This document shows, piece after piece, positions 7,098 through 41,519 of a stretch of DNA of 58,096 nt; the stretch's first letter is position 1, and each line of letters opens with the position of its first letter. The translations under genes were made by a program, and so were the position numbers. The DNA is from Thermoanaerobaculaceae bacterium (GTDB lineage: Bacteria > Acidobacteriota > Thermoanaerobaculia > Thermoanaerobaculales > Thermoanaerobaculaceae), in contig DAONEV010000002.1 in NCBI GenBank assembly GCA_035403265.1, positions 1 to 58,096 on the forward strand, given 5' to 3'. The notes beneath the pieces are model-generated. The model had not been told where the DNA came from and ran no database searches. It was given only the letters and a program-made list of their open reading frames with translations.

Positions 7098-7101
7098 TTC
7101 C

Positions 7102-7932: not shown

Positions 7933-7943
7933 GCTGTGACCTC

Positions 7944-9113: not shown

Positions 9114-9123
9114 CGGTTGCAGT

Positions 9124-12708: not shown

Positions 12709-12763
12709 GGTTTTCCCCTTCCTCCTCCACGCGGCTTGACCGTGGCATCAATCTTGAGGAAAG

Positions 12764-12806: not shown

Positions 12807-12944
12807 TCGTTTGAGGGTCGGGAGGGGCGGCGTCACCAACCAACACACAATATGATACAAGCAAAGAAGTTATGCGGAACGCCGTCGAATGAATGGCCTC
12901 GTTGTAACCTCAGAGTCGTGGCTCAAGACCAACCGGACCTGTCA

Positions 12945-16277: not shown

Positions 16278-17720
16278 TCACTCGCTGGGCTCGAGCCCGC
16301 GGCCGAAGGTGCCGAGCTCGATCCCGAGGTACTGCCTGGCGTTGAAGAACGACACCGCCTCGACGACCCGACCGAGCATCGCCCGGTCGTCAGGAACCAA
16401 CCCCCGCCTCACGTCGTGGCCGAGCAGGTTGCAGACGAGGCGTCGGAAGTAGTCGTGCCGCGAGTACGAGAGGAAGCTCCGGGAGTCGGTGACCATGCCG
16501 ACGAACCGCGAGAACAGGCCCAGGTTGGAGAGCGCCCGAAGCTGGGCCTCCATCCCGTCCATCTGGTCGAGGAACCACCAAGCGGGACCGTACTGGAGCT
16601 TGCCAGGCACCGAGCCGTCCTGGAAGTTGCCGGCCATCGTGGCGAACAGCTCGTTGTCGGCCGGGTTCAGGTTGTACAGGATCGTCCTGGCGAGCTGATC
16701 GGTGCTGTCCAGGCGGTCGAGGAAGCGTGCCAGCGAGCGCGCCTGCGGGAAGTCACCGATCGAGTCGAGGCCGCTGTCGGAGCCCAGGGACCGGCGCAGC
16801 CGCGAGCTGTTGTTTCGCAGGGCGCCGAGGTGAAGCTGCTGCACCCAGCCACGGGTGTGGTCGAGAAGCGCCAGGTGGTGGAGGAGCGCCGACCGGAACC
16901 GTCGCGCCTCGCCGGCGTCGAGGGTTTCCCCGCGCCGCAAGAGGTCGAACGCCTTCCCGGTGTCGGCGTCGCTCCAGGGCTCCGCATCGATCGCCTCGAG
17001 CCCGTGGTCGGAGGCGCGGCAACCGGCCGCGTGGAACGCCGCGTGGCGCAAGTCGAGGGCCTCGATGAGCGCTTCGAAGCAGCCGATCGAGAGGCCTGCG
17101 ACCTCTTCCAGCTTGCCGACCCAGGCGTTCCACGCCACGGGGTCCTGGGTTGCCATCACGCGGTCGGGCCGGAACGTCGGAACGACGCGAGTCTCGGGGT
17201 CGACCCGTTTCGCCAGGGTGGCGTGGGGCGTCAGGGAGTCCACCGGGTCGTCGGTGGTGCAGACGACGGCGACCCGGGACTGCCGGAGCAACCCCTGAGT
17301 CGAGAAGCCCGGCTCGCCGAGCCGCTCGTTGCACCGGTCAAAAACCGCCCGTGCCGAGCGCTCGTCAAGGAGATCCGTGATGCCAAAGGGGCGGTGCAGC
17401 TCCATGTGCGTCCAGTGGTACAGGGGGTTGCGCAGGGTGAAGGGAACGGTCCGTGCCCACGCTTCGAACTTCTCCCAGTCCGAGGCGTTCCCCGTGCACA
17501 GTCGTTCCGGCACGCCGTTGGTGCGCATCGCCCTCCACTTGTAGTGGTCGCCCTGCAGCCAGATCTCGGTGATGGAACGGAAGCGGTGGTCGGAAGCGAT
17601 CTGGTCGGCCGGGAGGTGGCAGTGATAGTCGATGATCGGCAGCCGTTCGGCGTGACCGTGGTAGAGATCCACGGCGACGCTGGTCTCCAGAAGGAAGTCT
17701 TCGTGAATGAAGGGCCTCAT
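16278..17720 (-). CDS. uxaC: uronate (glucuronate/galacturonate) isomerase
   Basis: MRPFIHEDFLLET...IIDYHCHL, GDHYKWRAMRTNGV, NPLYHWTH.EL, GMVTDSRSFLSYSRHDYFRR. Full-length UxaC pattern. Confidence 0.95.
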   Translation of the reverse strand: MRPFIHEDFLLETSVAVDLYHGHAERLPIIDYHCHLPADQIASDHRFRSITEIWLQGDHYKWRAMRTNGVPERLCTGNASDWEKFEAWARTVPFTLRNPLYHWTHMELHRPFGITDLLDERSARAVFDRCNERLGEPGFSTQGLLRQSRVAVVCTTDDPVDSLTPHATLAKRVDPETRVVPTFRPDRVMATQDPVAWNAWVGKLEEVAGLSIGCFEALIEALDLRHAAFHAAGCRASDHGLEAIDAEPWSDADTGKAFDLLRRGETLDAGEARRFRSALLHHLALLDHTRGWVQQLHLGALRNNSSRLRRSLGSDSGLDSIGDFPQARSLARFLDRLDSTDQLARTILYNLNPADNELFATMAGNFQDGSVPGKLQYGPAWWFLDQMDGMEAQLRALSNLGLFSRFVGMVTDSRSFLSYSRHDYFRRLVCNLLGHDVRRGLVPDDRAMLGRVVEAVSFFNARQYLGIELGTFGRGLEPSE

Positions 17721-18466
17721 GAGTGGTCTCTCCCCTCCGGACCGGGATGAGCCAGCGCGACGCCTGGCTCCCTTGCCTGGGCGTCGCGGGCTCTCTCCAG
17801 ATGCTCCGCCATCTCGCGCCGGGCTCGGTCGGCGTCCCGCACCCGGATGGCGCGGTAGATCCGCCGGTGCATGTCTGCCGACTCCTTGAGGTCGGTGGCC
17901 TGAACGACACTCTCCCGCCGGGTCTCCCAGACGAGCTGAGCCAGGGTGTCGATCAACGTGGCCAGGACCGGGTTGCCCGAGGCCGCCGCCACGAGGCGGT
18001 GGAAGCAGACGTCATGAAGGAGATACTGCCTGGGATCCTCGATCGAGGCGAACATGCTCGCCACCTCGTCCGCCAGGGATGACGTCTGCTCGGGTGTGGC
18101 CTTGCTGGCGGCCAGGCCGCACGCGCCGACCTCGAGGACCATCCGAGCCTCGAACATCTCGTCCCGGGTGAAGCCATGAAGCGCGGCGAGGAAACGGAGA
18201 GGCCCCTCGCCGAGCCGGGGAGGGCCCGCCACGATGTAGGTTCCCGACCCCTGACGTGCGTGCATCACCCCCATCGCCTGGAGGGACCGAAGCCCGGCGC
18301 GAAGGGAAGACCGGCTCAAACCGACCTGAGCGGCCAGCTGGCGCTCGGGTGGCAGGCGATCCCCTGGCTTCAAGCGACCGTCCTCGATGAGCTTGAGGAC
18401 GAGCTCGACCACCCTGCCCCCGGCGGTGGAGCTGGTCGAATGGTCGCTGGCGGTCTTACCTGTCAT
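17717..18466 (-). CDS. GntR/FadR-family transcriptional regulator (paralogue 1)
   Basis: N-terminal wHTH (PGDRLPPERQLAAQVGLSRSSLRAGLRSLQAMGV) and a helical FCD-like C-terminal domain. The stop overlaps the uxaC start (ATGA). Confidence 0.88.
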   Translation of the reverse strand: MTGKTASDHSTSSTAGGRVVELVLKLIEDGRLKPGDRLPPERQLAAQVGLSRSSLRAGLRSLQAMGVMHARQGSGTYIVAGPPRLGEGPLRFLAALHGFTRDEMFEARMVLEVGACGLAASKATPEQTSSLADEVASMFASIEDPRQYLLHDVCFHRLVAAASGNPVLATLIDTLAQLVWETRRESVVQATDLKESADMHRRIYRAIRVRDADRARREMAEHLERARDAQAREPGVALAHPGPEGRDHS

Positions 18467-18601: not shown

Positions 18602-18642
18602 TGGTATGATCTGGCAATGATGTCAAAGTGGTCGACCACTTT
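18602..18642 (+). promoter_or_regulatory. extended -10-like element plus perfect 18-bp palindromic operator upstream of kdgK
   Basis: TGGTATGAT (TGn-TATGAT) at 18602-18610. The perfect palindrome AAAGTGGTCGACCACTTT at 18625-18642 lies 20 nt upstream of the kdgK start. Confidence 0.55.
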
Positions 18643-18662: not shown

Positions 18663-19757
18663 GTGATGCTCAAGCTCAAGGATGAGTTGGACTGCCGCTG
18701 GGACCTGATCAGCCTCGGTGAGGTGATGCTCAGGTTGGACCCGGGAGAGGCTCGCATCCACACGACGCGGCAATTCTCCGCCTGGGAGGGAGGCGGTGAG
18801 TACAACGTCGCCCGCGGGCTGCGGCGCTGCTTCGGCAAGCGCACGGCGATCCTGACGGCGCTCGTCGACAATCCGGTCGGACGGCTCGTCGAGGACCTGA
18901 TGCTCCAGGGTGGGGTGGACCTTTCGCTTGTCCGCTGGGTTCCCCATGACGGGGTGGGACGGGAAGCCCGAAACGGCTTGAACTTCACGGAACGGGGGTT
19001 CGGGCCGCGCGCCGCGGTGAGTTGCTCGGACCGGGGGCACACCGCCGTGTCGCGACTCCAGCCCGGCGACTTCGACTGGGAGGCGATCCTCGGCAAGGCC
19101 GGGGCGCGCTGGCTGCACTCGGGCGGGATTTTCTGCGCCCTCGGCGAGTCGACGCCGGCGGTGGCGCTGGCGGCCTTCGAGACGGCGAGGAGACATGGCA
19201 CGATCGTGTCATACGACCTCAACTACCGGGAGTCCCTCTGGCGCTCCGGCGGAGGCCGCTCGCGAGCGCAGGAGGTCAACCGGTCCCTGCTGGGCTCGGT
19301 CGACGTGCTGCTCGGGAACGAGGAGGACTTCACCGCCGCGCTCGGGTTCGAGGTCGATGGAACCGACCCGGGCTTCGCAGACCTCCCGACGGCCGGTTTC
19401 CGCCGCATGATCGAGAGGGTCACGGGTGCCTTCCCGAACCTGACGGCCGTGGCGACAACCCTGCGCACCGCCGGCAGCGCGAGCCGGAACGGCTGGGGCG
19501 CTCTCTGCTGGGTCGCCGGCACGTTCTACGAGGTCCAGCAGGCCGACATCGAGATCCTCGACCGGGTGGGCGGCGGCGATTCCTTCGCATCCGGCCTGAT
19601 CTGTGGGCTGATGGAAGACCGGGGTCCCCAGTGGGCGCTGCGATGCGGCGTGGCGCACGGTGCCCTCGCCATGTCCACGCCGGGCGACACCTCCATGGCG
19701 ACAAGGGCGGAAGTCGAGCGGCGGATGACTGGCTCGACCGCGAGGATCGAGCGATGA
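18663..19757 (+). CDS. kdgK: 2-dehydro-3-deoxygluconokinase-like PfkB sugar kinase (kinase 1)
   Basis: PfkB motifs (SLGEVMLRL, GGGEYNVA, ILDRVGGGDSFASG). Translationally coupled (ATGA) to eda. GTG 18663 or ATG 18666 could be the start, with GGAG at 18654-18657. Confidence 0.8.
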   Translation: MMLKLKDELDCRWDLISLGEVMLRLDPGEARIHTTRQFSAWEGGGEYNVARGLRRCFGKRTAILTALVDNPVGRLVEDLMLQGGVDLSLVRWVPHDGVGREARNGLNFTERGFGPRAAVSCSDRGHTAVSRLQPGDFDWEAILGKAGARWLHSGGIFCALGESTPAVALAAFETARRHGTIVSYDLNYRESLWRSGGGRSRAQEVNRSLLGSVDVLLGNEEDFTAALGFEVDGTDPGFADLPTAGFRRMIERVTGAFPNLTAVATTLRTAGSASRNGWGALCWVAGTFYEVQQADIEILDRVGGGDSFASGLICGLMEDRGPQWALRCGVAHGALAMSTPGDTSMATRAEVERRMTGSTARIER

Positions 19758-20416
19758 GGCGGCAGGAGGCGGTCGAGAGGATCGAGAGGCTCGGCCTCGT
19801 CCCGGTCGTGCGGGCACCCTCGGCGCTGCTGGCGCGACGTGCGGCGTTCGCCGTGATGGCCGGCGGGATCGACGTTCTCGAGATCACCATGACCGTTCCC
19901 GACGCCCTCGAGGTCCTGCGCCAGCTCGTCGCCGACCTCGGGGACCGGGCCCTGGTCGGGGCCGGGACGGTCCTCGACGCCGACACTGCCCGGGCCTGCA
20001 TTGCGGCCGGTGCCCGGTTCATTGTCGCGCCGGGCCTCGACCTGGAGACCGTGCGTGCGGCGCAGGCTCTCGACACGGCTGTGATGCCTGGTGCACTGAC
20101 GCCAACCGAGGTCATGGCGGCGTGGAAGGCGGGCGCGGACATGGTCAAGATCTTCCCCTGCTCGGCGGTAGGAGGGCCGGAGTATGTGCGGGCTCTCAAG
20201 GCGCCGTTCCCTCGGGTGAAGCTCCTGCCCACTGGCGGCGTCGACCGGCAGATGGCGGCGGACTATATCCGCGCCGGTGCCTCGGCCCTGGGGGTCGGCA
20301 CGGCGCTCGTCGACGTGAGGGTCATGCAGTCCCAGGGCGACGAGGTGCTGTCGGCTCGCGCTCGAGAGCTGGTCGAGCTCGTCGGCGCCACGCGTGCCCA
20401 GCTCGAAGGGCGGTAG
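19754..20416 (+). CDS. eda: 2-dehydro-3-deoxyphosphogluconate (KDPG) aldolase
   Basis: VPVVR, VLEITM, GAGTVL, FIVAPG, the Schiff-base Lys context VKIFP, and LPTGGV. The ATG overlaps the kdgK stop. Confidence 0.9.
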   Translation: MRRQEAVERIERLGLVPVVRAPSALLARRAAFAVMAGGIDVLEITMTVPDALEVLRQLVADLGDRALVGAGTVLDADTARACIAAGARFIVAPGLDLETVRAAQALDTAVMPGALTPTEVMAAWKAGADMVKIFPCSAVGGPEYVRALKAPFPRVKLLPTGGVDRQMAADYIRAGASALGVGTALVDVRVMQSQGDEVLSARARELVELVGATRAQLEGR

Positions 20417-21790
20417 GTGGTGCGCTGCGGAAACCACCGCTGGCGGGGCTGGCCACTGGTCGCCCTGGGTGTCACCGTGGCCTGTGTCGGCGGACGTGGG
20501 GCGCTGGTCGATCGTGGGGCAGCCGGCCCGGGTTCGGGAGAGACTGCCGATTGGGTGGTCGCGCAGGACGGGAGTGGAGACTTCCGAACCGTGCAGGCGG
20601 CACTCGACGCGCTTCCGTGCGATGCGGACAGGTATCGCGTCATCCTCCTGCGCCCGGGCGTATACCGGGAGAAGATCTTCGTGACGAAGAGCAAGGTGGC
20701 CCTGGTCGGGGAGGACCGGGACGCCACACGCCTCGTCTTCTCCGAGCTGCGCTCCGAGTGGCGGCAAAGCCATGCCGACGACTGGGGCGCCGCAGTCGTC
20801 AACGTCGGCAACGACGTCGAAGACCTCGTCCTCGCCAACCTCACGATTCGCAACGACTTCGGGAGCCGGGGCGGGAGTCACGACCATCAATTCGCGGTTC
20901 GCAGCGGGGGCGCCTCGACCCGCATCTCGGTCCTCCACGCCAACGTGATCGCGGACGGCGGCGATACGATCTCGCTCTGGAACAGCATGTCCGGGATGAC
21001 TTACCACGCGGACTCGTCCTTCGAGGGCTGGGTGGACTTCTTCTGCCCGCGCGGCTGGAGCTACGTCAGGGACAGCCGGTTCTTCGGCCACAACGAGACC
21101 GCCGCCATCTGGCACGACGGCAGCAACGACGAGGACCAGAAGCTGGTGATCCAGAGTAGCCGTTTCGATGGCGTCCCCGGGTTCGCCCTCGGCCGGAACA
21201 CCCGAGACGGCCAGTTCTACCTGCTCGACTGCACGTTCTCGGCGGCGATGGCCGATCGCCCGATCTACCTCGCCCGCGAGCCGGAGACGTTCCGTTGGGG
21301 TCTCCGGGCGTACTTCTGGGGTTGTCGGCGGGAAGGTGGTGATTTCCCGTGGCTCGCCGACAACTTGCACCAGGCGCCGGGCGCTCCGAGCCCAGGGGAG
21401 ATCGATGCGCGCTGGACCTTCGGTGGCAGGTGGGACCCCGAAGCGACACTCCCGGCGGTCCTGCCGTTCGCCAGCATCCCGACCCCGCGCAACGGCGCTC
21501 GCGGGGTCCCAGCGACGCGGGCCCGGCTCCGGTGGATCGGTGCCCGCAACGCCGCCGCCTATGACGTTCACTTCGGTCAGACGGACCCGCCTCCGGTCGT
21601 CGCCCGGGTCAAGGTCGCCTGGTTCGATCCGGGTCTCCTGACGCCGGGTAGGATGTACGTGTGGCGTGTCGATGCGGTGACAGCACATGGGACCGTCGAG
21701 GGAGCCGTCTGGCGTTTCGGGACCACGCCGAGGGAGCCTGGACCAGCGACAGCGCCTCGAGGGAATGAGGTGAGCCAGCATGGACAGTGA
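20417..21790 (+). CDS. pectinesterase (CE8) with C-terminal Ig/FN3-like extension, secreted
   Basis: VVAQDGSGDFRTVQAALDALP, GGDTISLW and GWVDFFCPRG match the CE8 pattern (QDGSGxF, QDTL, VDFIFG). GTG 20417 directly follows the eda stop. Confidence 0.8.
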   Translation: MVRCGNHRWRGWPLVALGVTVACVGGRGALVDRGAAGPGSGETADWVVAQDGSGDFRTVQAALDALPCDADRYRVILLRPGVYREKIFVTKSKVALVGEDRDATRLVFSELRSEWRQSHADDWGAAVVNVGNDVEDLVLANLTIRNDFGSRGGSHDHQFAVRSGGASTRISVLHANVIADGGDTISLWNSMSGMTYHADSSFEGWVDFFCPRGWSYVRDSRFFGHNETAAIWHDGSNDEDQKLVIQSSRFDGVPGFALGRNTRDGQFYLLDCTFSAAMADRPIYLAREPETFRWGLRAYFWGCRREGGDFPWLADNLHQAPGAPSPGEIDARWTFGGRWDPEATLPAVLPFASIPTPRNGARGVPATRARLRWIGARNAAAYDVHFGQTDPPPVVARVKVAWFDPGLLTPGRMYVWRVDAVTAHGTVEGAVWRFGTTPREPGPATAPRGNEVSQHGQ

Positions 21791-22541
21791 GACCTTGATC
21801 GAGCAGCCTGCCAAGCCAGACGCAGCGGAAAGCGTCGTCGCCTATGTCCGTGATCTGCTCAGCAAGGGCGAGGTCAAACCCGGTGACCGACTGCCCGCCG
21901 AGAGGGACCTGGCCCTGGAGATTGGTGTCAGCCGACCGAGCGTCCGCGCCGGGCTCCAGGCGCTCGCGGCGATGGGAGTCGTGGACTCGAGGCGCGGCTC
22001 CGGGACCTACATCAGCACGGGCCCGCCGGTGCTGAGTAGTGGTCCTCTCCAGCTCCTCGCGATCCTCCATGGCATTCCCCGGGCCGAGATCTTCGAGGCC
22101 AGGCGCGTCCTCGAAGCCCGCACGGCGCGACTGGCCGTCGAGCGGGCCGCCGGGGAGTCACTGGCCGAGATCTCCGAGGAGGTGATGGGCATGTTCGCCT
22201 CCACCGGGGATCCGCAGGAGTTCCTCCTGCACGACATCCGATTCCACCGTGCCGTCGCTCGGGCTTCGGGGAACATGGTCCTTTCGGCTCTCGTGGAGAT
22301 GGTGTCGGAGATCTTCTATGAGCAGCGCAAGGCGACGGCGGGTCTGGATCGCGACCTGCGCATCTCGGCCGAGGAGCACCGGCGGATCTACCAGGCGATC
22401 CGAGACCGCGATCCCGATGCCGCGGAGCGGGAGCTGGATGGACACCTGCGCGCCTCACTGGAGAGGCAGGAGCGGGAGAATCGGAACCACGCACAGGCGC
22501 TACAGAAGGACGGGAACCCGAAACGGAAGAAGGGAAGCTAG
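21780..22541 (+). CDS. GntR/FadR-family transcriptional regulator (paralogue 2)
   Basis: wHTH (PGDRLPAERDLALEIGVSRPSVRAGLQALAAMGV) plus an FCD-like domain. Clearly paralogous to 17717-18466. Overlaps the pectinesterase stop by 11 nt. Confidence 0.88.
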   Translation: MDSETLIEQPAKPDAAESVVAYVRDLLSKGEVKPGDRLPAERDLALEIGVSRPSVRAGLQALAAMGVVDSRRGSGTYISTGPPVLSSGPLQLLAILHGIPRAEIFEARRVLEARTARLAVERAAGESLAEISEEVMGMFASTGDPQEFLLHDIRFHRAVARASGNMVLSALVEMVSEIFYEQRKATAGLDRDLRISAEEHRRIYQAIRDRDPDAAERELDGHLRASLERQERENRNHAQALQKDGNPKRKKGS

Positions 22542-22573
22542 ACACCGCGGTTGGGCGGGATGGGAGCACTGGA

Positions 22574-23989
22574 ATGACCTCCAAGGGGTTTGGCGTCGTC
22601 GGATTGGGCGTCATGGGGCGCAACCTCGCCCTCAACCTGGCGCGGCATGGCTTCCCCGTCATGGGCTTCGACCTCGATGCCGAGCAGCGCCGGATCGCGC
22701 ACGAGTTGCTGGCAAACGAAGGCTCCTCGACTGTCGAGTCGCTCGCGCGTCTCGTCCTCGGTCTTGAGCCACCGCGCCGCGTCATGCTGATGGTTCCGGC
22801 AGGACCGCCGGTCGATCGCGTGGTGGACGAGCTGACAGGGCTCCTTGCACCCGGGGACATCGTCATCGACGGTGGTAACTCCCATTTTCACGACACCCAG
22901 AGGCGTCAGGGCACGCTGCAACAGCACGGTCTGAATCTCCTCGGGACGGGAGTCAGCGGTGGAGAGGCCGGCGCTCTTGCCGGGCCTGCGATCATGCCGG
23001 GCGGCCCGAGGGATGCCTATCGCCTCGTCGAGGAGGCCTTGACGGCGATCGCGGCCCGCAGCGACGAGGGCCCGTGCTGCGCGTACATGGGATCGCGCGG
23101 CGCTGGGCACTTCGTCAAGATGGTCCACAACGGCATCGAGTACGCGATCATGCAGCTCATCGGGGAGGTCTACTCGCTGCTTGGCATCGCCGGGGGCCTG
23201 TCGGCTCCAGAGCAGGCGGAGGTATTCGCGACCTGGAAGGAAGGCGAGCTCGGATCGTATCTCGTCGAGATCACCGCCGCGGTCCTGGCCAAGGTGGACG
23301 ACGTGACCGGTCTTCCCCTGGTCGACGTGATCCTCGACACGGCCGGCCAGAAGGGAACGGGCAAGTGGACCTCGCAGACGGCCTCGGACCTCGGCGTGGC
23401 CGTGCCGTCGATCGACGCGGCCCTCCACGGCCGGATGCTCTCCGCGCTCAAGAGTGAGCGGGTCGCTGCCGCCGGATTGCTCGGTCGGGGAGGGGACCGG
23501 AGCCGAGCCACCCAGCCGTCGCCTGGCAGCCTCGTCGAGCTGACCCGGGACGCCCTCCGCGTCGCGAGCGTGGCCGCCTACGCGCAGGGGTTCGCGCTCC
23601 TGCGCGAAGGCTCGCGCGAGTACGGCTTCGGCCTCGACCTGGCCGAGATCGCCCGGGTTTGGAAGGGCGGCTGCATCATCCGCGCCCGCGTGCTGAACGA
23701 GGTCCGGGCCGCCCTGCTCGCAGACCCGGACCTGACCAATCTCCTGGTCGCGCCCGTGCTCGTTCCCGTTGTGCGGGCCCTCGATGGCGCGTTGCGTGAG
23801 GTCGTGGTCGCGTGTGTCCGAGCCGGCGTTGCGTGTCCCGGGTTCTCCGCGACGCTCGCCTACCTCGACTCCGTGCGGACCGAGAGACTGCCCGCCAATC
23901 TCCTGCAGGCGCAGCGGGATTTCTTCGGCGCCCACACCTACCGGCGGATCGACAAGCCCGCCGATGTGGCGTTCCACACGATCTGGTGA
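22574..23989 (+). CDS. gnd: 6-phosphogluconate dehydrogenase, decarboxylating
   Basis: Collinear with E. coli Gnd as recalled (GVVGLGVMGRNLALN, IIDGGNSHF, GTGVSGGE.GA..GP.IMPGG, GAGHFVKMVHNGIEY, KGTGKWT, QAQRDFFGAHTY.RID). Confidence 0.95.
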   Translation: MTSKGFGVVGLGVMGRNLALNLARHGFPVMGFDLDAEQRRIAHELLANEGSSTVESLARLVLGLEPPRRVMLMVPAGPPVDRVVDELTGLLAPGDIVIDGGNSHFHDTQRRQGTLQQHGLNLLGTGVSGGEAGALAGPAIMPGGPRDAYRLVEEALTAIAARSDEGPCCAYMGSRGAGHFVKMVHNGIEYAIMQLIGEVYSLLGIAGGLSAPEQAEVFATWKEGELGSYLVEITAAVLAKVDDVTGLPLVDVILDTAGQKGTGKWTSQTASDLGVAVPSIDAALHGRMLSALKSERVAAAGLLGRGGDRSRATQPSPGSLVELTRDALRVASVAAYAQGFALLREGSREYGFGLDLAEIARVWKGGCIIRARVLNEVRAALLADPDLTNLLVAPVLVPVVRALDGALREVVVACVRAGVACPGFSATLAYLDSVRTERLPANLLQAQRDFFGAHTYRRIDKPADVAFHTIW

Positions 23990-24023: not shown

Positions 24024-25007
24024 TCAGGGGGCCGGCGCGAGCCAGCCGTGGGACCGCATCCACTCCTCGAGCCGCGTCGGCCATTCGGAGGTCGGGCCGA
24101 GGCCCGGGTTGGTACCGAAGCCGTGCGGACCTCTCTCGTAGAGGTGCATCTCGGCCGGGACACCGGCACGGCGCAGCGCCTGGAAGAAGAGCAGGCTGTT
24201 CTCGAGTGGCACCGAGCTGTCCTCGGCGGTATGGACGAGAAATGTGGGGGGGGTGTCCTTCGTCACCTGGTTCTCGAGCGAAAGCCGCTCGACCAGGGCC
24301 GGGGTCGGGTTCTCCCCGAGGAGATTCCGGCGGGACAGTACGTGGGTGAACGGCGTGGTCATCGTGATCACCGGGTAGAGGAGGGCGAGGAAGTCCGGCC
24401 GGGCGCTCGTGGTGTCCAGCGCCGCTCCGGTCCGTCCTTCGGGCGCATCGAACAGTGTCCCGGCGCAGGCCGCCAGATGGCCGCCGGCGGATGACCCCAG
24501 GACCCCGATCCGATCCGGCCGCACGCCCAGCTCGTGGGCCTGGGAGCGGACGAGCCGGATGGCCCGCAGGACATCGCGCAACGGTGCCGGGTGACCGAAC
24601 TCCACGAGCCGGTACTTGAGGACGTACGCCGAGACCCCGAGCGTATTGAGCCGCTTGACGAGGTCGCTGCCCTCCCGCGAGACCGCGAGGCGCCCGTAGC
24701 TCCCGCCCGGACAGACGATGACCGCGGTTCCCACGGTGGTCTGCGCCGGCGCCGGGAAGGCGGTCAGGGTGGGAACCTGGACGTTGTAGACGCGCCCGTC
24801 CTCGAGGCGTTCCGCGCCGCCCTCGGGTCGAGCCCCGGGAACGCCTTCGGGCCAGAGCGGCATCACTCTGGGCGCCTGCGCGAGGGCCGCCGGAGCGGAG
24901 ATCCCGAGCGCGAGCAGGAGCCATCGAGCCCCGCGCCGGGACCGGCGACTCTCACCCGATCTTCGCGAGCCGGTCAGTTGCCTGACGACGACCTGCGCCG
25001 GCGCCAT
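24024..25007 (-). CDS. secreted alpha/beta-hydrolase, esterase (candidate pectin/carbohydrate acetylesterase)
   Basis: Arg-rich signal segment (SRRSRRGARWLLLALGISAPAALA). GGSYG oxyanion-type motif and the nucleophile elbow GSSAGG. The start overlaps the exuT stop. Confidence 0.7.
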   Translation of the reverse strand: MAPAQVVVRQLTGSRRSGESRRSRRGARWLLLALGISAPAALAQAPRVMPLWPEGVPGARPEGGAERLEDGRVYNVQVPTLTAFPAPAQTTVGTAVIVCPGGSYGRLAVSREGSDLVKRLNTLGVSAYVLKYRLVEFGHPAPLRDVLRAIRLVRSQAHELGVRPDRIGVLGSSAGGHLAACAGTLFDAPEGRTGAALDTTSARPDFLALLYPVITMTTPFTHVLSRRNLLGENPTPALVERLSLENQVTKDTPPTFLVHTAEDSSVPLENSLLFFQALRRAGVPAEMHLYERGPHGFGTNPGLGPTSEWPTRLEEWMRSHGWLAPAP

Positions 25008-26317
25008 CAGGGCCTCGTGTCCTGACTCTCATGCAGCGGCGCCAGGCTCGGAGCGAGGAGGTGGTGGATTGCGAACGCGATCAGATAGGCCGAGGCGCAG
25101 ATGGCGAAGAGGATCCCGTAACCCTGGTTGGCTGGAAGGCGGTCCAGGAGCCAGCCCGAGAACCAGGGGAACAGGATGCCCCCGATCGAGCCCGCCATGC
25201 CTCCGATGCCGACGATGGTCCCCACGTCCTTCTTGGCGAACATGTCGGAGACGGTCGTGAAGAGGTTCGCGGACCACGCCTGGTGCGCCGAGCCGGCGAG
25301 GCCGATGAGCATGACGGCCGGCCAGTCGCCAACGTGTGTGGCGCCGAGGATGGGCAGGACGCAAAGGGCATAGAGAAACATCCCGGCCTTGCGGGCGCGC
25401 GTCACGCTCCAGCCGCGCTGACTGAGGTGGCCGGTCAGCCACCCGCCGGCGATGCTGAGCACCGTGACGATGGCGTAGATCGTCACGAGGTGAACCCAAC
25501 TGTGCTTGATGCCGAGGCCGCGGGTCTTCCTGAAGTAGTCGGGGAGCCAGATGAGAAAGAACCACCAGACCGGGTCGGTCATGAACTTGGCGACGACGAA
25601 CGACCAGGTCTGGCGGCAACGCAGCGCCTTGAGCCAGCCCATCGGCTGGCCCCCGGAGCCGGACTCGTCGCGATCGCTCTGGATGAGGGCCAGCTCTGAG
25701 GTTGAGAGCCGCTTCTGTTTCTCGGGGACCTCGTAGAACGGGAGCCAGAGCAACAGCCAGAGGAACCCCGCCGCCCCAGCGAACAGGAACGCCGAGCGCC
25801 AGCCCAGGGCCAGCGCGAGGGCCGGGATGACGGCCGGAGCGACGATCGCACCGACGTTGGTCCCGGAGTTGAACAGCGCGGTGGCGAAGGCGCGCTCCCG
25901 CCGGGGGAACCAGATCGCCACCGCCTTGATCGCGGCCGGGAAGTTCCCGCCTTCGCTGCAACCAAGGCCGATTCGGGCGGCGAAGAAGCCCCGCACCGAG
26001 CCGACCGCCGCGTGGCTCATCGCCGCGAGGCTCCAGCAGACAAGGGAGACGGCATAACCGATCTTGGTGCCAAAGCGGTCGACGAACCAGCCGAACGCCA
26101 GCAGGCCGACGGCATACGCACCCTGGAACGCCGAGTTGACCATGCCGAACTGCTCGTTGGTCCAGCCCAGCTCCTGGTCGAGCAGCTCCTTGATCAGCGC
26201 CAGGATCTGCCGGTCGACGTAGTTGACCGTGGTGGCGAGAAAGAGCAGCGCACAGATGACCCAGCGGTAGCGGCCCACGCTGGAGCTCACGGAGGCTTTC
26301 AACCCGGATGGGGACAT
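25007..26317 (-). CDS. exuT: MFS hexuronate transporter
   Basis: 12-TM MFS pattern. ExuT/ACS-family motifs as recalled (VNYVDRQ, FGTKIGYA, WFPRRERAFA..LFNSGTNVGA). Confidence 0.8.
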   Translation of the reverse strand: MSPSGLKASVSSSVGRYRWVICALLFLATTVNYVDRQILALIKELLDQELGWTNEQFGMVNSAFQGAYAVGLLAFGWFVDRFGTKIGYAVSLVCWSLAAMSHAAVGSVRGFFAARIGLGCSEGGNFPAAIKAVAIWFPRRERAFATALFNSGTNVGAIVAPAVIPALALALGWRSAFLFAGAAGFLWLLLWLPFYEVPEKQKRLSTSELALIQSDRDESGSGGQPMGWLKALRCRQTWSFVVAKFMTDPVWWFFLIWLPDYFRKTRGLGIKHSWVHLVTIYAIVTVLSIAGGWLTGHLSQRGWSVTRARKAGMFLYALCVLPILGATHVGDWPAVMLIGLAGSAHQAWSANLFTTVSDMFAKKDVGTIVGIGGMAGSIGGILFPWFSGWLLDRLPANQGYGILFAICASAYLIAFAIHHLLAPSLAPLHESQDTRP

Positions 26318-28432: not shown

Positions 28433-29215
28433 TCAGATGCTCATGGCATTGAAGCCACCGTCGACCACGAGCTCGGTACCCGTAATGAACGCCCCGGCCC
28501 GGTCGGAGGCAAGCAGCAGGGTTGCACCGACAAGGTTCTCCGCCTCCCCGAACCGTCCCATGGGCGTGTGGGCCATGATCGACGCGACACGCTCCGGAGT
28601 GAGCACCTTGCGGTTCTGCTCGGCCGGGAAGAAGCCCGGAACCATGACGTTGACGCGGATCCCCAGAGCCGCCCACTCGCGGGCCAGGTTCTTCGATAGG
28701 TTGTGGACGGCGGCCTTCGAGATCGAGTAGGTAAACACCCGCGAGAGCGGCGTCAGGCCGGCCATGGAGCCCATGTTGATGATACTGGCGCCCACGCCAT
28801 CTCGCCGCGCTCGCTCGACGAAGTAGCGGCCGAACACCTGACAGGCGAGGAAGACCGTCTTGACGTTGACCGTCATGATCTGGTCGTACTCGGCCTCCGG
28901 GATCTCGAGGAACGGACATGCCGAGTTGATCCCGGCGCCGTTGATCAGGATGTCCACCTGCCCGCAGCGGCGCCGCGTCTCGGCGAGCAGGGCCTCCAGG
29001 TCATCCTTGCTGGTGGCATCGCACATGAGCGACGACGCCTTGCCTCCGGCCGCGGCAATCCGTTCCAGGCGGCTCCGCGCCTTCTCGGGCTCCCGGTCGG
29101 CCAGGAAGACCTCGGCGCCGGCCGTGGCCAACCCTTCCCCCATGGCACCGCAGAGCTCTCCGGCGCCTCCCACGACAACCGCCACCTTGCCTCGCAGCTC
29201 GAAAAGGTCGCTCAT
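28433..29215 (-). CDS. SDR-family oxidoreductase, candidate fructuronate reductase / D-mannonate oxidoreductase (UxuB-type)
   Basis: [15 protein letters not shown] Rossmann motif, NGAG and YSISK (YxxxK). ATG 29215 has AGGAG upstream, and the ORF-track start at 29314 is an extension. The function is inferred from adjacency to the UxaE-like gene. Confidence 0.8.
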
Positions 29216-29268: not shown

Positions 29269-29314
29269 GCCGAAGGTCCATCTTCTTCGCACCACTCTCC
29301 ACTTGACTCGACAA

Positions 29315-29327
29315 GTGGTCTAACCAC
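29315..29327. promoter_or_regulatory. palindromic FadR/GntR-type operator in the SDR / LarA-like divergent region
   Basis: GTGGTCTAACCAC has 10/10 arm positions of GTGGT-N3-ACCAC. Lies 66 nt upstream of GTG 29393. Confidence 0.5.
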
Positions 29328-29392
29328 CTGCTAGACTTGTATCAGAAAATCCGAGGCGGGGCAACCCAGCCTGCCCGACGTGGAGCGGGAAC

Positions 29393-30700
29393 GTGGTCAT
29401 TGGACGTGGGGTGACGGATCGCTTGCTGTCGCCGCCCGAGGTTCGCGAGATCGTGGAGCAGTCCATGGCAACCCTGGACCCGGCCTGGCGGCGCGTCCTG
29501 GTGTTGATCCCGGACGGCACGCGAAGCATGCCGCTCCCGTGGCTCGTCGACCTTCTGGACGAGACACTCGGCCCGCGGGTCGAAGCCCTCGACTACCTTG
29601 TGGCGCTCGGCACCCACAGGCCCATGAGTGACGAGCAGCTAGGACGCCTGATCGGCCGGACGGTCGTGAAGGGACGCGCGGGATCGAGCCGGGTCTTCAA
29701 CCACCACGCCTCCCAGTCGGGCGAGCTGGTGCAGCTCGGAACGATCCCGGCGGCGGAGATCGCGGCCATCACGGGTGGCCTACTGGACGAGGAGCTTCCG
29801 GTCAGGCTCAACCGTCTCGTGCTCGAGTACGACGCCCTGCTCGTGTGCGGCCCGGTTTTCCCCCACGAGGTGGTCGGGTTCTCGGGCGGGAACAAGTACT
29901 TCTTCCCCGGCATCGCAGGACCAGAGGTCATCAACCTGACTCATTGGCTCGGCGCTCTCATTTCCAGCTTCGAGGTGATCGGTGCAGGCTACACGGCGGT
30001 GCGGGCCGTGGTCGACCGGGCCGCCGCGCTGATCGGCTGCCCGAAGAGGTGCCTCGCCGCGGTCGTCACCGGGTCCGGGCTCGCCGGGCTGTTCTTCGGG
30101 GAGCCGCACGAGGCGTGGCAGGCGGCTGCCAAGCTGTCCGCGCGCGTGCATGTCGTGTGGGTCGAGAAGCCTTTCCGCCGTGTGCTCTCCGTGATGCCTG
30201 CGATGTACGAGGACCTGTGGACGGCCGCCAAGGGGATGTACAAGGCAGAGCCCGCGGTGGCCGACGGTGGCGAGGTGGTCATCTACGCCCCGCACCTCAC
30301 GGAGGTCAGCTTCACGCATGGACCGGCCATCGAGGCGATCGGCTACCACTGCCGGGACTACTTCCTGGGTCAGTGGGAGCGTTTCAGAACGGTCCCGGGC
30401 GGCGTGCTCGCCCATTCGACCCACCTCAAGGGTCTCGGCCGCTGGGACGCCGCCACGTGCGTGGAGACTCCCCGCATCAGGGTGACGCTGGCCACCGGCA
30501 TCTCCGAGCCACGGTGCCGCCATCTGAACCTCGGCTACCTCGACCCCGCCGAGGTTGATGTCGACGCGTGGAAGGGGCGCGAGGACGAGGGTGTCCTCGT
30601 GGTGCCGCGAGCCGGAGAGATGCTGTATCGGGTGCGAGCAAGCCTACAAAACGCGGACCCCCTGGCCGGGCCGAAGGAGGAACCATGGACCACGGACTGA
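29393..30700 (+). CDS. LarA-family nickel-pincer-nucleotide-dependent 2-hydroxyacid racemase/epimerase homologue
   Basis: IPDGTRS (Asp/Arg), ALGTHR, and PHEVVGFSGGNK-x15-H, i.e. His-x9-Lys-x15-His. This is the same spacing as H174/K184/H200 of L. plantarum LarA. The Lys codon AAG is at 29894-29896. The GTG start has GGAG upstream. Confidence 0.8.
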   Translation: MVIGRGVTDRLLSPPEVREIVEQSMATLDPAWRRVLVLIPDGTRSMPLPWLVDLLDETLGPRVEALDYLVALGTHRPMSDEQLGRLIGRTVVKGRAGSSRVFNHHASQSGELVQLGTIPAAEIAAITGGLLDEELPVRLNRLVLEYDALLVCGPVFPHEVVGFSGGNKYFFPGIAGPEVINLTHWLGALISSFEVIGAGYTAVRAVVDRAAALIGCPKRCLAAVVTGSGLAGLFFGEPHEAWQAAAKLSARVHVVWVEKPFRRVLSVMPAMYEDLWTAAKGMYKAEPAVADGGEVVIYAPHLTEVSFTHGPAIEAIGYHCRDYFLGQWERFRTVPGGVLAHSTHLKGLGRWDAATCVETPRIRVTLATGISEPRCRHLNLGYLDPAEVDVDAWKGREDEGVLVVPRAGEMLYRVRASLQNADPLAGPKEEPWTTD

Positions 30701-31767
30701 CGATCCCCAAGGACGGCGCCCTCGACTTCCTGGCACTAGGAGCGCTCGTGCATCGCCTGGACCCGGGCGTGGTGCCGTTCCGGAAGGCCGCGAGCTGCCA
30801 GATCCACGTCAGTGGGGGAGAGTTCAACTGTGCCGCCAACCTCGCGGACTGCTTCGGTCTCTCCACGGGGGTCGTCACTGCGATGGTCGACTACCCGATC
30901 GGCGACCTCATCGCCGAGCGGGTGCGGGCCATGGGCGTCAGGCCCTTTTACAAGCACTTCACCCATGATGGCGTGAGCGGCCCGAACATGGCCACCGTCT
31001 ACAGCGACCGGGGCTTCGGGGTGCGGGCACCGGTCGTCTTCTACAACCGCTCGAACGAGGCGGCAGCTCAGCTTGCGCCTGGCGACGTCGACTGGTCGAG
31101 CCTTTTCTCGCGTGGTGTTCGCTGGTTTCACAGCGGCGGGATCTTCGCGTCGCTTTCACCCACCACGGCGGACCTGATCGTCGAAGGCATGACGGCTGCC
31201 AGGGCCGCCGGCGCGGTGGTCTCCTTCGACCTCAACTTCCGAGAGAAGCTCTGGAGGAGCTCGGGCGGACGCAACCGTGCCGTGGAGGTGCTCGGCCGCA
31301 TCGTGAGGCATGTGGACGTGCTCGTCGGCAACGAGGAGGATCTTCAGCAGGGGCTCGGCATCCCAGGCCCCGAGGTCGCGGCGCGGTCCAGGCTCGACCC
31401 GCGCGCCTTCATCGAGATGATCGGGCGGGTGATCGAGGCCTTTCCCCGGGTCAAGGTCGTGGCCACAACCCTGCGCGAGGTCCACACGTCCAGCCGGCAC
31501 TCGTGGGGAGCCGTCGCCTGGTTCGGCGGCAGGACGGTCGTCACACCCACGCTGGAGCTCGAGGTCCTGGATCGAGTGGGTGGCGGCGACGGGTTCGCCT
31601 CGGGGTTCTTCTACGGGTTGCTGGCCGGGGAACCTCCCGAGGCGGCGCTCCGGCTCGGCTGGGCTCACGGCGCGCTCGTCGCGACGTTTCCGGGCGACAC
31701 GACGATGGCCACCCTCGATCAGGTCCAGGCGCTTGCCAGAGGTGCCTCCTCCCGCATCCAGCGCTGA
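30685..31767 (+). CDS. PfkB-family sugar(-acid) kinase, paralogue of kdgK (kinase 2)
   Basis: ATG 30685 is preceded by GAAGGAGG and overlaps the LarA-like stop by 16 nt. Shares RW.HSGGIF, VDVL.GNEED....LG and LDRVGGGD.FASG with the kinase at 18663-19757. Confidence 0.85.
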   Translation: MDHGLTIPKDGALDFLALGALVHRLDPGVVPFRKAASCQIHVSGGEFNCAANLADCFGLSTGVVTAMVDYPIGDLIAERVRAMGVRPFYKHFTHDGVSGPNMATVYSDRGFGVRAPVVFYNRSNEAAAQLAPGDVDWSSLFSRGVRWFHSGGIFASLSPTTADLIVEGMTAARAAGAVVSFDLNFREKLWRSSGGRNRAVEVLGRIVRHVDVLVGNEEDLQQGLGIPGPEVAARSRLDPRAFIEMIGRVIEAFPRVKVVATTLREVHTSSRHSWGAVAWFGGRTVVTPTLELEVLDRVGGGDGFASGFFYGLLAGEPPEAALRLGWAHGALVATFPGDTTMATLDQVQALARGASSRIQR

Positions 31768-38869: not shown

Positions 38870-38989
38870 TGTCCCGATTCCGGACCTGAGACGGGGGCCA
38901 GCGGTACAATCGGCCAGGACACACGGTACGAACACGGCACTCCTCGTCGGGCTGGGCTTGCCGTGTCTCTGCCACGGGGAGACGTCGCC

Positions 38990-39360
38990 ATGCGTGCATT
39001 CCTGGTCGCCGTGCTGATCCTCTCCACCCTGCCGGCCGCGGTGGCCCAGACCACCACCTTCGTCCGACCCGGCGGCGGCACGCCGGAGCAGTGCACGGGC
39101 CGGACCGACGCCGACTATCCCGGCTCCGGCTCGGGACAGGCGTGCGCTTTCGCCCACCCATTCCACGCCATGCCACCTGGGGGCACGCCGCGTCTGGCCG
39201 GTGGTGACACCCTGATCATCGCTCCCGGCTCGCACATGGCAGGCTTCGGGGCACCGGGAGCCGAGGGATGTGATGCCGTCGCAGCCTGGGACTGCCACAT
39301 GCCACCACTGCCCAGCGGGCCCGACGCCGCCCACCCGACCCGGGTCCTCGGCGCCGATTC
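38990..39360 (+). pseudogene. N-terminal fragment of a secreted protein (possible truncated gene)
   Basis: ATG 38990 has GGGGAG upstream, followed by a signal peptide (MRAFLVAVLILSTLPAAVAQ) and ~120 plausible residues. After about 39360 the frame becomes Arg-rich and antisense-like. It stays open to 40069 only by running antisense through the convergent gene 39503-41311. The 3' end is undefined. Confidence 0.35.
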
Positions 39361-39502
39361 CAGGTGCTTGCACCGCCGTCAGCACGCTCGCCTGACTCTC
39401 GTCGGGGCGCTGCACATCGACCGGGGGCGCCTCGGGCACCGCCGGGAACGACGCCCCGGCCGCCTCGACCTCGCCGGGGCCGGACGGGTCGGCGGGCGTT
39501 CG

Positions 39503-41311
39503 TCACTGCAGCATGACCAGCGCCCGGATCACACCACTACCCTGCGTCCACTCCTGCAGCGCCTTGCCGATCACCGTGCCCCGAGGTGGGTCGCTGCCGG
39601 CTCGCATGGCTTGGCCGGCCGTCGCGGCGGCCGTCAGCAGGTCGCCGGGGCGGATGGCGCCGGCCTCGGCGCTGACCTTGACCGGGACAACGCCGACGAT
39701 CGCCAGCGGCACACTCCCGATCGAGCTGGTCGCCTCGCTGCTGCCGCCGACAACCCCGGGTCTGGTCGAGTAGACGCCAGCCACCGTGGGCTGGAAGGCG
39801 GCCGTGCAGCGCTCGAGCTGGCCACCAGCATCGAGGCACAGCACGTCGCCGGGCTCAAGGCCTGCGGCGGCGGGCAGCAGCTCGGCGAAATCGGCGCCGC
39901 CGGGATGGAACGTCCCGTCGGCATAGACCTCGCCGCCTTTGGTGACCCGGAACTTGATGTCGCTCGCATCGCCGGTGATCGTCAGGACGTTGGTGCCCAT
40001 GCCAGCCTGAAGATCGAGGGCCACCCCGCCCGCCTGGTTCGTGAAACGGGCCCCATACCCGTCGGGTGAGTTCGAGGTCCCGAAGACGCCCAGGTTGAAC
40101 CCCGAGCTGGCCCCGGCATAGCCCCACACGCCGACGCCTCCCGTCGAGCTGGCGCTGCCAAAGACACCCTTCGCCGCGCCGGTGGGTGCACTGCCGTAGA
40201 CGCCAGAAGCCATGGTATCGCTGGAAGCGGTCTCGCCCCACACACCGTAGGCACGGCCCGTTGTTGCCGTCGCCGACCCCTCGACGCCGCGGCCGGTGGA
40301 CGAGCTCGTGACGCCGGACACGCCGGCGTTGTCTCCGGATGTCGAGGTGGCGCTACCGGAAACACCTTGACCAGTCGGCGAGGTCGAGATCCCCAGGACC
40401 CCACTGCCGCTTCCAGGTCCGGTCGACTCACCCTTGACGCCGCGCCCGCTGCCGCCACTGGAGACACCGTACACGCCATCCGAGCTAGCTCCTGTTGCCT
40501 CGCCGTAGACCCCGGCGCCCGCCGCGCCGCTCGCCGTGCCCATGGCGCCTCTCGCCGGAGCACTGCCGTACACACCGCGGCCGTCGGGTGAGCTGGCCGT
40601 GCCATAGACGCCGTACGTGGTCCCACTCGCGGCCGTGGAGCGGCCGTAGACGCCGTAGGTCAGGGCGGTGCCGTAGACGCCGCGGCCATCGGGCGAGAAC
40701 GAGGTGCCATAGACGCCATGCCCGGTCCCGGTGCCAGCCGACGCGATGCCGTAAACGCCGCGCGCGTCGCTGGTGGCACTCGAGCTGCCCTGCAGGCCAT
40801 AGCCGGTCGTCGAGGTGTTGGTCACGGTCAGGGCCGGACTCCCGGCCACGGCCCCCAGCACCTTGGCGCCTGGCAGCAGGCCCTGGGCGTACGGCGCGGT
40901 CGTCATGGCCTGGCGCGGGCTGAGCAGGGTGTACGAAGGCTCGGCGCCGCACTTGGCCTCCACCTGCAGCCAGCGCGCGTCGCCGACAAAGGCGCTGGAG
41001 CCGAACTCGCCTCCCGCGTTGACGACGGCGACAAAGTACCCATCGATCACCGACACGCTGGCGACGAGGCTGTCGCCTCCCAGCTTGCCGGTTGGATTCC
41101 CGAGAGAGTCCCAGAGGCTGAAGCGGAAGCCGCAGGTGGCGGTGACGGGAACACCGCCGGCGTCCCGGAGCACCCCCTGGTAGGTGAAGCCGGAGCCCAG
41201 TTGGACCAGCGAGATGTCGGGATCACTGGCTTCCTGGGCGCTTGACCGCCCACTGCCGATGGCGACCAGGATCAAGATCAGCACAGCAACACGCGGGCAC
41301 TTGGGACGCAT
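39503..41311 (-). CDS. secreted Gly/Ser-rich GVxG-repeat protein with tail-fibre-like C-terminal domain
   Basis: ATG 41311 is preceded by GGAGGAGGAG, and the ORF-track start at 41359 is an extension. Signal peptide VAVLILILVAIGSG. Contains 18 GV[YWFKLSE]G-anchored units and a C-terminal ~150 aa domain (GADFAELLP...GDVL...VAGVYS..PG...PLAIVGVVPVKV). Confidence 0.8.
   Translation of the reverse strand: MRPKCPRVAVLILILVAIGSGRSSAQEASDPDISLVQLGSGFTYQGVLRDAGGVPVTATCGFRFSLWDSLGNPTGKLGGDSLVASVSVIDGYFVAVVNAGGEFGSSAFVGDARWLQVEAKCGAEPSYTLLSPRQAMTTAPYAQGLLPGAKVLGAVAGSPALTVTNTSTTGYGLQGSSSATSDARGVYGIASAGTGTGHGVYGTSFSPDGRGVYGTALTYGVYGRSTAASGTTYGVYGTASSPDGRGVYGSAPARGAMGTASGAAGAGVYGEATGASSDGVYGVSSGGSGRGVKGESTGPGSGSGVLGISTSPTGQGVSGSATSTSGDNAGVSGVTSSSTGRGVEGSATATTGRAYGVWGETASSDTMASGVYGSAPTGAAKGVFGSASSTGGVGVWGYAGASSGFNLGVFGTSNSPDGYGARFTNQAGGVALDLQAGMGTNVLTITGDASDIKFRVTKGGEVYADGTFHPGGADFAELLPAAAGLEPGDVLCLDAGGQLERCTAAFQPTVAGVYSTRPGVVGGSSEATSSIGSVPLAIVGVVPVKVSAEAGAIRPGDLLTAAATAGQAMRAGSDPPRGTVIGKALQEWTQGSGVIRALVMLQ
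40049..40804 (-). repeat. degenerate in-frame tandem repeats (36-42 nt units) encoding GVxG modules
   Basis: CCGTAGACGCC-type strings (complement of GGCGTCTACGG = GVYG) recur on the plus strand. Protein units are mostly 12-14 aa. Confidence 0.7.
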
Positions 41312-41519
41312 GGTGATCTCCTCCTCCGAGCCGTGACGAAAAGAGTGGTCTGCATTCACTCTACCACCGAGAGACTGGCGATTCCTGCTCCACCCCGACG
41401 CGCTGAACGGCAGCGCCTCGGCGAACCGGAGATCGAGGCCGCACCTGCTGGGTTTCCCGAACGAGGCACGGCACGGGAGCCCGGAAGTCCGGCGACCGGT
41501 AGAATGACCTCAGGCCTGC

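Follow-up and report, generated by a model that had tools for sequence, protein, structure and literature searches.

The closest described relatives of the locus reported here are three sets of enzymes from other bacteria. For Thermotoga maritima, a hyperthermophilic anaerobe, Rodionova et al. (2012) proposed a route in which hexuronate carbon passes from mannonate through gluconate to 6-phosphogluconate and, as that work is recounted in PMC3750489, the genes form a UxaR-regulated operon of the order aldH-pelB-gnd-uxaR-uxaE-uxaD-gntE-gntK. D-gluconate 2-epimerase activity was later described in the LarA superfamily for LarAH19 (GntE1) and LarAH20 (GntE2) (Desguin et al., 2020; PMC7583248), in agreement with the initial annotation of the present DNA. 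In Lactobacillus suebicus, mannonate carbon from galacturonate likewise reaches 6-phosphogluconate and Gnd in a redox-neutral manner, and Valk et al. (2020; PMC6978723), who also mention that gntE homologues had been noted earlier in Acidobacterium and Terriglobus, regard such a passage of galacturonate to ribulose-5-phosphate without net redox cost as attractive for pectin-to-product engineering. The subject here is a 58,096-nucleotide (nt) stretch of a Thermoanaerobaculaceae bacterium (assembly GCA_035403265.1, contig DAONEV010000002.1, positions 1 to 58,096; hereafter the window; 69% G+C), in which a gene for a LarA-superfamily protein of 435 amino acids (aa) overlaps a gene for a 360-aa PfkB-family kinase (kinase 2) at one end of a pectin utilisation locus. 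The pair had been read as part of a hexuronate pathway of a shape not described before; given the 2012 proposal and the epimerase activity of 2020, the shape of the pathway is not new.

The locus does, in turn, resemble the T. maritima system closely. Between positions 16278 and 31767 it holds the uronate isomerase UxaC, a UxaE-type epimerase (a weak match), a short-chain dehydrogenase/reductase (SDR) likely to act as fructuronate reductase, a LarA-family protein of the gluconate 2-epimerase (GntE) type, a sugar-acid kinase, the 6-phosphogluconate dehydrogenase Gnd and a GntR-family regulator, and as in T. maritima these stand in a pectin locus with a separate KdgK/KdgA branch alongside. The epimerase here is of group 19, not group 20, of the LarA homologues and is 33% identical to TM0442, the kinase is a KdgK-like, probably KdgK-derived PfkB protein where T. 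maritima has an FGGY-type GntK, and the UxaE-like protein is 638 aa long and only weakly similar to UxaE. The DNA comes from a soil organism of Acidobacteriota type that has a high GC content and is probably aerobic; within the locus, the Acidobacteriota-like character was read from the outer-membrane barrel protein with its CarboxypepD_reg domain. L. suebicus shares the upper pathway, but there the measured order is a mannonate kinase followed by a 6-phosphomannonate 2-epimerase, opposite to the order favoured here, and its candidate kinases are homologues of gluconate kinase genes and not PfkB proteins (PMC6978723). The locus is thus a variant of a known pathway that differs in its group-19 epimerase, in its PfkB kinase and in the Gnd and kinase context of group 19. 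What is new is the kinase family, a PfkB protein in place of the FGGY GntK and one to which public annotation assigns no function. The observation behind the initial annotation is confirmed and its biochemical interpretation is mostly supported, while its claim to novelty is not.

Both genes of the pair were found as first described, the epimerase gene starting with GTG and the kinase gene with ATG, and JGI, calling genes independently on a 12.7-kb metagenome contig of identical sequence, arrived at the same two. Alignment of both N-termini with those of homologues lends credence to the start codons. The stop codon of the epimerase gene (30698-30700) lies downstream of the kinase ATG at 30685, giving the claimed overlap of 16 nt, and a Shine-Dalgarno sequence for kinase 2, GAAGGAGG, ends 4 nt 5' of this ATG within the 3' end of the epimerase gene. 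The pair is transcribed divergently from the SDR gene, the UxaE-like gene and a major facilitator superfamily (MFS) transporter gene, as had been stated.

Kinase 2 carries the Pfam PfkB domain (PF00294, 65 bits against a cut-off of 25.8) and the C-terminal DxxGxGD catalytic motif, and the stretch DRVGGGDGFASG is invariant in its family. It reached the cut-off of no NCBIfam equivalog model (at best 120 bits against 440), and its top match in the PDB is the 2-keto-3-deoxygluconate (KDG) kinase KdgK of T. maritima (2AFB, E 1.8e-40). Like this enzyme and the KdgK of Thermus thermophilus (1V19), kinase 2 falls in the length class of ~350-360 aa, has the KdgK fold and carries the catalytic motif DRVGGGD. 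The earlier view that kinase 2 is a paralogue of kdgK agrees with its 42% identity (E 1e-89) to the other PfkB protein of the locus, kinase 1. Kinase 2 itself is nevertheless set apart from KdgK by the missed equivalog cut-off, by the coupling of eda to kinase 1 while kinase 2 partners gnd, and by motifs of its own. Its orthologues form a tight separate clade, with 67-81% identity within the clade and 42-48% to the KdgK clade; they share the motifs IHVSGGEFN and GPNMATVYSDRGxGVRAPVVFYNRSNEAAA, where the KdgK clade has AWEGGGEYN and NGLN----FTERGFGxRA..CSDRGHTAVS. Only the PfkB fold was detected in kinase 2 by Pfam, NCBIfam and PDB searches, which returned neither a P-loop GntK/IdnK nor an FGGY fold, and the claim is therefore that it may work like a gluconate kinase, not that it belongs to a gluconokinase family. 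Relatives in public records go by the names 'sugar kinase', 'PfkB family carbohydrate kinase', 'ribokinase' or '2-dehydro-3-deoxygluconokinase'.

The neighbours of the kinase-2 orthologues point to its role. A metagenome search with two kinase-2-specific motifs returned at least 578 relatives; because picking of open reading frames (ORFs) in high-GC DNA is crude, evidence from the surveyed loci was limited to neighbours confirmed by Pfam. A gnd gene lies directly upstream of the kinase-2 orthologue in 18 of the 46 loci with at least 1.5 kb of upstream sequence, and other immediate neighbours are the GntP permease, the glucose-6-phosphate dehydrogenase Zwf and transketolase. Where at least 4.5 kb of upstream sequence was available, a LarA homologue was present in 5/23 loci, three of them group-19-like and two true LarAH18, and several gnd-kinase-2 pairs had no LarA gene at all across loci of 10-17 kb. 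Across the survey, kinase-2 orthologues thus adjoin gnd, LarAH19, LarAH18, gntP, zwf and tkt. A kinase that is paired with gnd, zwf, tkt or gntP but not with an epimerase should itself make the substrate of Gnd, and these LarA-free contexts favour gluconate as the substrate and an order of epimerase, then kinase. This is the expected behaviour of a general gluconate kinase feeding Gnd, which is the reading favoured here, and on this evidence the large kinase-2 clade is a strong candidate for a family of gluconate (or mannonate) kinases, the third one and so far unrecognised. The two true LarAH18 genes (NF052594, 656 and 638 bits) stand beside kinase-2 orthologues in UxaC-MFS-SDR clusters at 8001-11646 of locus L155 and 6371-9080 of locus L099, so that one kinase clade partners two LarA groups; in L155 a second, KdgK-like PfkB gene lies between LarAH18 and the kinase-2 orthologue.

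The 435-aa protein was then placed within the LarA superfamily. It has the Lar_N domain (PF09861, 85 bits against a cut-off of 23.3), the two-domain LarA fold and the full set of residues for catalysis and for binding of the nickel-pincer nucleotide (NPN). The motif constellation claimed for it was recovered as DGTR (D41-R44), GTH (H75) and H158-x9-K168-x15-H184; D41, R44, H75, H158, K168, H184 and K280 align with D72, R75, H108, H174, K184, H200 and K298 of Lactobacillus plantarum LarA (2YJG) and are invariant across 15 homologues with 65-100% identity to the window protein. The top PDB sequence match was 4NAR (T. maritima TM0442/GntE2, E 1.7e-56), with LarA 5HUQ at 6.6e-7, and an AlphaFold2 model (pLDDT 69, pTM 0.71) superimposed on 4NAR with TM-scores of 0.69-0.71, the next 18 Foldseek matches all being LarA-family structures. 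At the positions of LarA F175, F176, W358 and T359, GntE enzymes usually have E, V, A and H (PMC11770544); the window protein has E159, V160, A340 and H341, and these are invariant in the family alignment.

GntE2 (group 20) was first taken as the closest family on account of 4NAR, and this was revised once sequences of groups 18, 19 and 20 from the supplementary dataset of Desguin et al. (2020) had been included. A neighbour-joining tree was built from a small sample of sequences, each cut to its first 400 residues; LarAH group 19 encloses the window protein and its relatives, far from group 1. Identity is 50-57% to the group-19 members Rcas_3031, Npun_F5335, Trad_0660, Franean1_3196 and Plabr_2258 (from Roseiflexus, Nostoc, Truepera, Frankia and Planctomyces brasiliensis), 43% to GntE1 of Corynebacterium glutamicum, 33% to group 20 and 26-28% to group 18. 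Both PHEVVGFSGGNKYFFPG, a loop motif, and LAHSTH occur in GntE1 as well as in the window protein. No NCBIfam equivalog cut-off was reached; the top model was LarAH18 (NF052594), and an identity as LarAH18 was considered and dropped, since the score of 167 bits falls short of the cut-off (500). Specificity signature, group-19 placement and the match to GntE2 in sequence and fold support a GntE-type hexonate 2-epimerase rather than a lactate racemase, a prediction shared by the initial annotation.

Relatives of the epimerase are very numerous, in that all 8000 of 8000 scored candidates in a protein search passed E 1e-5. Relatives are present in at least 596 species-level genomes and among metagenomic proteins in the thousands, with a concentration in Acidobacteriota and Chloroflexota. 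Both phyla are abundant in soil, and Luteitalea pratensis is mentioned in PMC11770544 as an aerobic species of Acidobacteriota with a LarAH gene. With close epimerase relatives in that many genomes, the shunt would be no Thermotoga curiosity. Neighbourhoods were scored by tblastn with the window proteins in 60 species-level genome loci with adequate flanks from Acidobacteriota, Chloroflexota and other groups. An SDR gene was directly upstream of the LarA-like gene in 28/60 loci; 22 had a kinase-2 orthologue (67-77% identity) no farther than 5 kb away, 21 had gnd at such a distance, and 16 had the two together. The module of SDR, LarAH19, Gnd and PfkB kinase thus recurs across Acidobacteriota and Chloroflexota, usually in the order SDR-LarA-Gnd-kinase. 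One metagenome-assembled genome (MAG) of the Vicinamibacteria has GntR<-SDR<-UxaE-like<-GH88 / LarA->PfkB->Gnd near GH28, KduI, KduD and DUF4861, and a contig from ENA reads LacI-UxaE-SDR-LarA-Gnd. The published context of group-19 genes consists of LarE/LarB/LarC, LacI, UxaC and UxuB-type dehydrogenases, with Gnd and ribokinase-family kinases tabulated for group 18 only (PMC7583248); here and in many Acidobacteriota and Chloroflexota, by contrast, SDR, Gnd and PfkB kinase genes adjoin those of group 19. As a point secondary to the kinase clade, this supplies gene-context evidence on the native substrate and role of group 19.

Some loci differ from this pattern. In two Terriglobia MAGs an altronate dehydratase gene of UxaA type is directly 3' of the LarA-like gene (L073 11327-13006, L075 11307-12974), which suggests that the epimerase is wired differently in some Terriglobia. 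In two further Acidobacteriota/Terriglobia MAGs (L005 11345-12628 and L009), a 427-aa phosphofructokinase (PFK)-family gene directly 3' of the SDR-LarA pair takes the slot that gnd or the PfkB kinase gene has elsewhere. FGGY kinase genes after the LarA-like gene in L047 and L056 were considered as equivalents of gntK, but the one in L047 is rhamnulokinase-like by NCBIfam and the one in L056 has a weak likeness to gluconokinase (214 bits against a cut-off of 649). At most one locus, L056, would support this argument, and it was not relied on.

Taken as a whole, the locus suggests the following route, every functional statement in it resting on homology and gene context. Galacturonate or glucuronate would be imported by the MFS transporter and isomerised by UxaC, the product from galacturonate then being epimerised to fructuronate by the UxaE-like protein, and the adjacent SDR would reduce fructuronate to D-mannonate. 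The LarAH19 enzyme would invert C2 by transient hydride transfer to its NPN cofactor, giving D-gluconate, which the translationally coupled PfkB kinase would phosphorylate at C6, and Gnd of the same locus would convert 6-phosphogluconate to ribulose-5-phosphate. In parallel, the canonical branch of KduI, KduD, KdgK and Eda would take the unsaturated products of pectate lyase. I consider it reasonably likely that the pair in this way links hexuronate catabolism to the oxidative pentose phosphate pathway. A shunt from mannonate through 6-phosphogluconate to Gnd is supported by the clustering of the epimerase gene with a mannonate-oxidoreductase-like SDR, gnd and PfkB kinase genes in many genomes, and the interpretation first given is partly supported as a whole, as its claims of novelty and of a job for orphan parts did not hold. 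UxuA, UxaA and UxaB domains were indeed not found among the window ORFs scanned, and Gnd is present as claimed. The parts are not orphans, however, since eda, which had been missed in the first reading, completes a canonical branch for unsaturated uronates together with KduI, KduD and KdgK.

Several points weigh against this route and have to be set beside the alternatives. A PfkB-family gluconate kinase was not found in the literature searched, and the closest solved and modelled relatives of kinase 2 are KDG kinases. The AlphaFold2 model of the epimerase is of moderate confidence, with the active-site loop 157-200 below 50, and the UxaE assignment is a weak, partial match. The NPN biosynthesis genes larB, larC and larE were not found among the ORFs scanned in the window; LarE/LarB are adjacent to 33% and LarC to 19% of published group-19 genes (PMC7583248). 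For GntE1, which alone in group 19 has been characterised, the Km with free D-mannonate is 120 mM; its authors doubt that mannonate is native, anticipate a 'slightly different molecule' and do not commit themselves to a native substrate (PMC7583248). In L. suebicus, finally, the kinase acts before the epimerase. This last order may also apply here, with the PfkB protein as a D-mannonate 6-kinase and LarAH19 as a 6-phospho-D-mannonate 2-epimerase giving 6-phosphogluconate, or with a kinase that takes both epimers so that both orders run. Such a scheme, which I regard as rather unlikely, would match the two orphan activities measured in L. suebicus extracts (PMC6978723), for which the later literature searched names no genes, and it would account for so high a Km of GntE1 with free mannonate and make LarAH19 the first LarA-superfamily enzyme to act on a phosphorylated substrate. 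It would fit the translational coupling of epimerase and kinase 2 here and the presence of gnd within the same operon in many genomes, and a KdgK-derived pocket would presumably read mainly the C4-C6 end that KDG, gluconate and mannonate have in common. Against it stand the frequent kinase-2 loci that contain gnd, zwf, tkt or gntP but lack a LarA gene, in which the product must suit Gnd, and the many LarAH19-gnd operons without a kinase (for example L165), which suggest a shared housekeeping gluconate kinase; in addition, both GntEs tested act on unphosphorylated mannonate (PMC7583248).

A different set of substrates was also weighed, namely another hexonate, uronate or aldarate pair, with kinase 2 as a second keto-deoxy-sugar-acid kinase that has no link to Gnd. 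D-glucarate/D-mannarate was suggested for group 19 by Desguin et al. (PMC7583248), the best family and structure matches of kinase 2 are kinases for KDG or for KDG and 2-keto-3-deoxygalactonate (KDGal), and the altronate dehydratase genes of the two Terriglobia loci point the same way. Yet such substrates would hardly account for the repeated finding of gnd beside both genes, whichever of the two the search started from, the best match of the upstream SDR is a D-mannonate oxidoreductase, aldarate dehydratase and transporter genes were not seen in the window, and a separate KdgK coupled to Eda makes kinase 2 unnecessary for KDG, so that this explanation appears improbable. Many homologues of the 435-aa protein are named 'nickel-dependent lactate racemase' by public pipelines, and were that name to be taken literally, its position in a pectin locus would be incidental. 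This can be given almost no credence, as the protein reaches only 77 of the 460 bits required by the NCBIfam LarA equivalog (NF033504), has E, V, A and H in place of the four LarA specificity residues, falls within group 19 and matches LarA structures at ~1e-7 as against 1e-56 for GntE2. The preferred reading remains that mannonate is epimerised to gluconate, which is then phosphorylated for Gnd.

Regulation of the locus was addressed through short palindromes. The GTGGT-N3-ACCAC sequence reported between the divergent units is present as GTGGT-CTA-ACCAC in the spacer of TCGACA-18-TAGACT, the sole promoter-like site in the intergenic region between SDR and epimerase genes. Allowing for one mismatch, this pattern occurs 7 times in the window where 1.66 occurrences were expected, a number reached in no shuffle. 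Two related palindromes were located, one upstream of the outer-membrane barrel gene and one, with N2 spacing, 24 nt upstream of kdgK, so that palindromes of the form (A)GTGGT-N2/3-ACCAC(T) stand in three of the promoter regions belonging to the pectin locus. The three palindromes are a candidate common operator through which one of the two GntR/FCD regulators might act. Elsewhere, TGGT-N2-4-ACCA was found upstream of LarA-like genes in only 2/81 loci, which implies an operator specific to the lineage or locus.

A Pfam and NCBIfam scan of the window ORFs placed the pectin utilisation locus at ~5.7 to 31.8 kb; its features are collected in Table 1. The genes kdgK-eda-pectinesterase-gntR-gnd (18663-23989, forward strand) follow one another in the same orientation with gnd last, neighbours overlapping or lying no more than ~33 nt apart. 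A single transcript from the promoter region bearing the GTGGT-CG-ACCAC palindrome probably covers kdgK-eda and gnd. The coupling of kinase 1 to eda makes it the natural KdgK, and its orthologues adjoin UxaC, GntR and KduD in loci L013 and L024.

Table 1. Features of the pectin utilisation locus and of the epimerase-kinase gene pair; positions are those of the window.
Feature	Position	Strand	Basis
Predicted NPN-dependent hexonate 2-epimerase of the LarA superfamily, LarAH group 19 (GntE1 type), 435 aa	29393-30700	+	Pfam, PDB, neighbour-joining tree, residues
PfkB-family sugar-acid kinase (kinase 2), proposed gluconate 6-kinase, 360 aa	30685-31767	+	Pfam, PDB, gene context
Shine-Dalgarno sequence GAAGGAGG for kinase 2	30673-30680	+	Read from sequence
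Promoter-like site TCGACA-18-TAGACT	29308-29337	+	Sequence
Palindrome GTGGT-CTA-ACCAC	29315-29327		
Palindrome GTGGT-CCT-ACCAC	12793-12805		
Palindrome GTGGT-CG-ACCAC	18628-18639		
Pectin-degradation part (GH28, KduI, DUF4861, outer-membrane barrel, GH88)	5694-15497	-	Pfam
GH28	5694-7106	-	Pfam/NCBIfam scan
KduI	7102-8112	-	Pfam/NCBIfam scan
DUF4861	7944-9131	-	Pfam/NCBIfam scan
Outer-membrane barrel with CarboxypepD_reg domain	9124-12747	-	Pfam/NCBIfam scan
GH88 with pectate-lyase-like domain	12945-15497	-	Pfam/NCBIfam scan
KduD	15494-16270	-	TIGR01832, 355 bits (equivalog cut-off 339)
Uronate isomerase UxaC	16278-17720	-	Pfam UxaC, 629 bits
GntR/FCD regulator 1	17717-18466	-	Pfam
PfkB kinase 1, likely true KdgK	18663-19757	+	Coupled to eda; orthologue context
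KDPG/KHG aldolase (2-keto-3-deoxy-6-phosphogluconate/2-keto-4-hydroxyglutarate aldolase) Eda/KdgA	19754-20416	+	Pfam Aldolase, 147 bits; ATG overlaps kdgK stop (ATGA)
GntR/FCD regulator 2	21780-22541	+	Pfam
Gnd, NADP-dependent decarboxylating 6-phosphogluconate dehydrogenase	22574-23989	+	NCBIfam, 587 bits (cut-off 413)
Esterase	24024-25007		Pfam/NCBIfam scan
MFS transporter, ExuT/galactonate-transporter type	25007-26317	-	Pfam, NCBIfam
Divergent UxaE-family protein (tagaturonate/fructuronate epimerase-like), 638 aa	26349-28265	-	Pfam UxaE, 31.8 bits (cut-off 27.1), partial
SDR, likely fructuronate reductase/D-mannonate oxidoreductase (UxaD-like)	28433-29215	-	NCBIfam PRK08277, 235 bits (cut-off 281)

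The UxaE-like protein matches UxaE only over residues ~350-466, which include an HSGSG stretch, and has roughly 250 extra residues; the PDB matches over the same region are 9KCS (5e-10) and UxaE 6ILB (9e-5). UxaE proteins are typically 387-500 aa long; the 638-aa form recurs beside the SDR gene in Vicinamibacteria/Thermoanaerobaculia loci (L161, L004), while a 387-aa UxaE fills its slot in L165. The GH88 gene encodes an 850-aa protein that joins a domain of the unsaturated glucuronyl/rhamnogalacturonyl hydrolase family to a weak C-terminal pectate-lyase-like region. Farther along the window, two long ORFs without a Pfam match overlap on opposite strands at 38963-41359 (368 aa on the forward and 618 aa on the reverse strand), and the genes downstream of the locus, among them rsmE and one for an ABC-F ATPase, are housekeeping genes.

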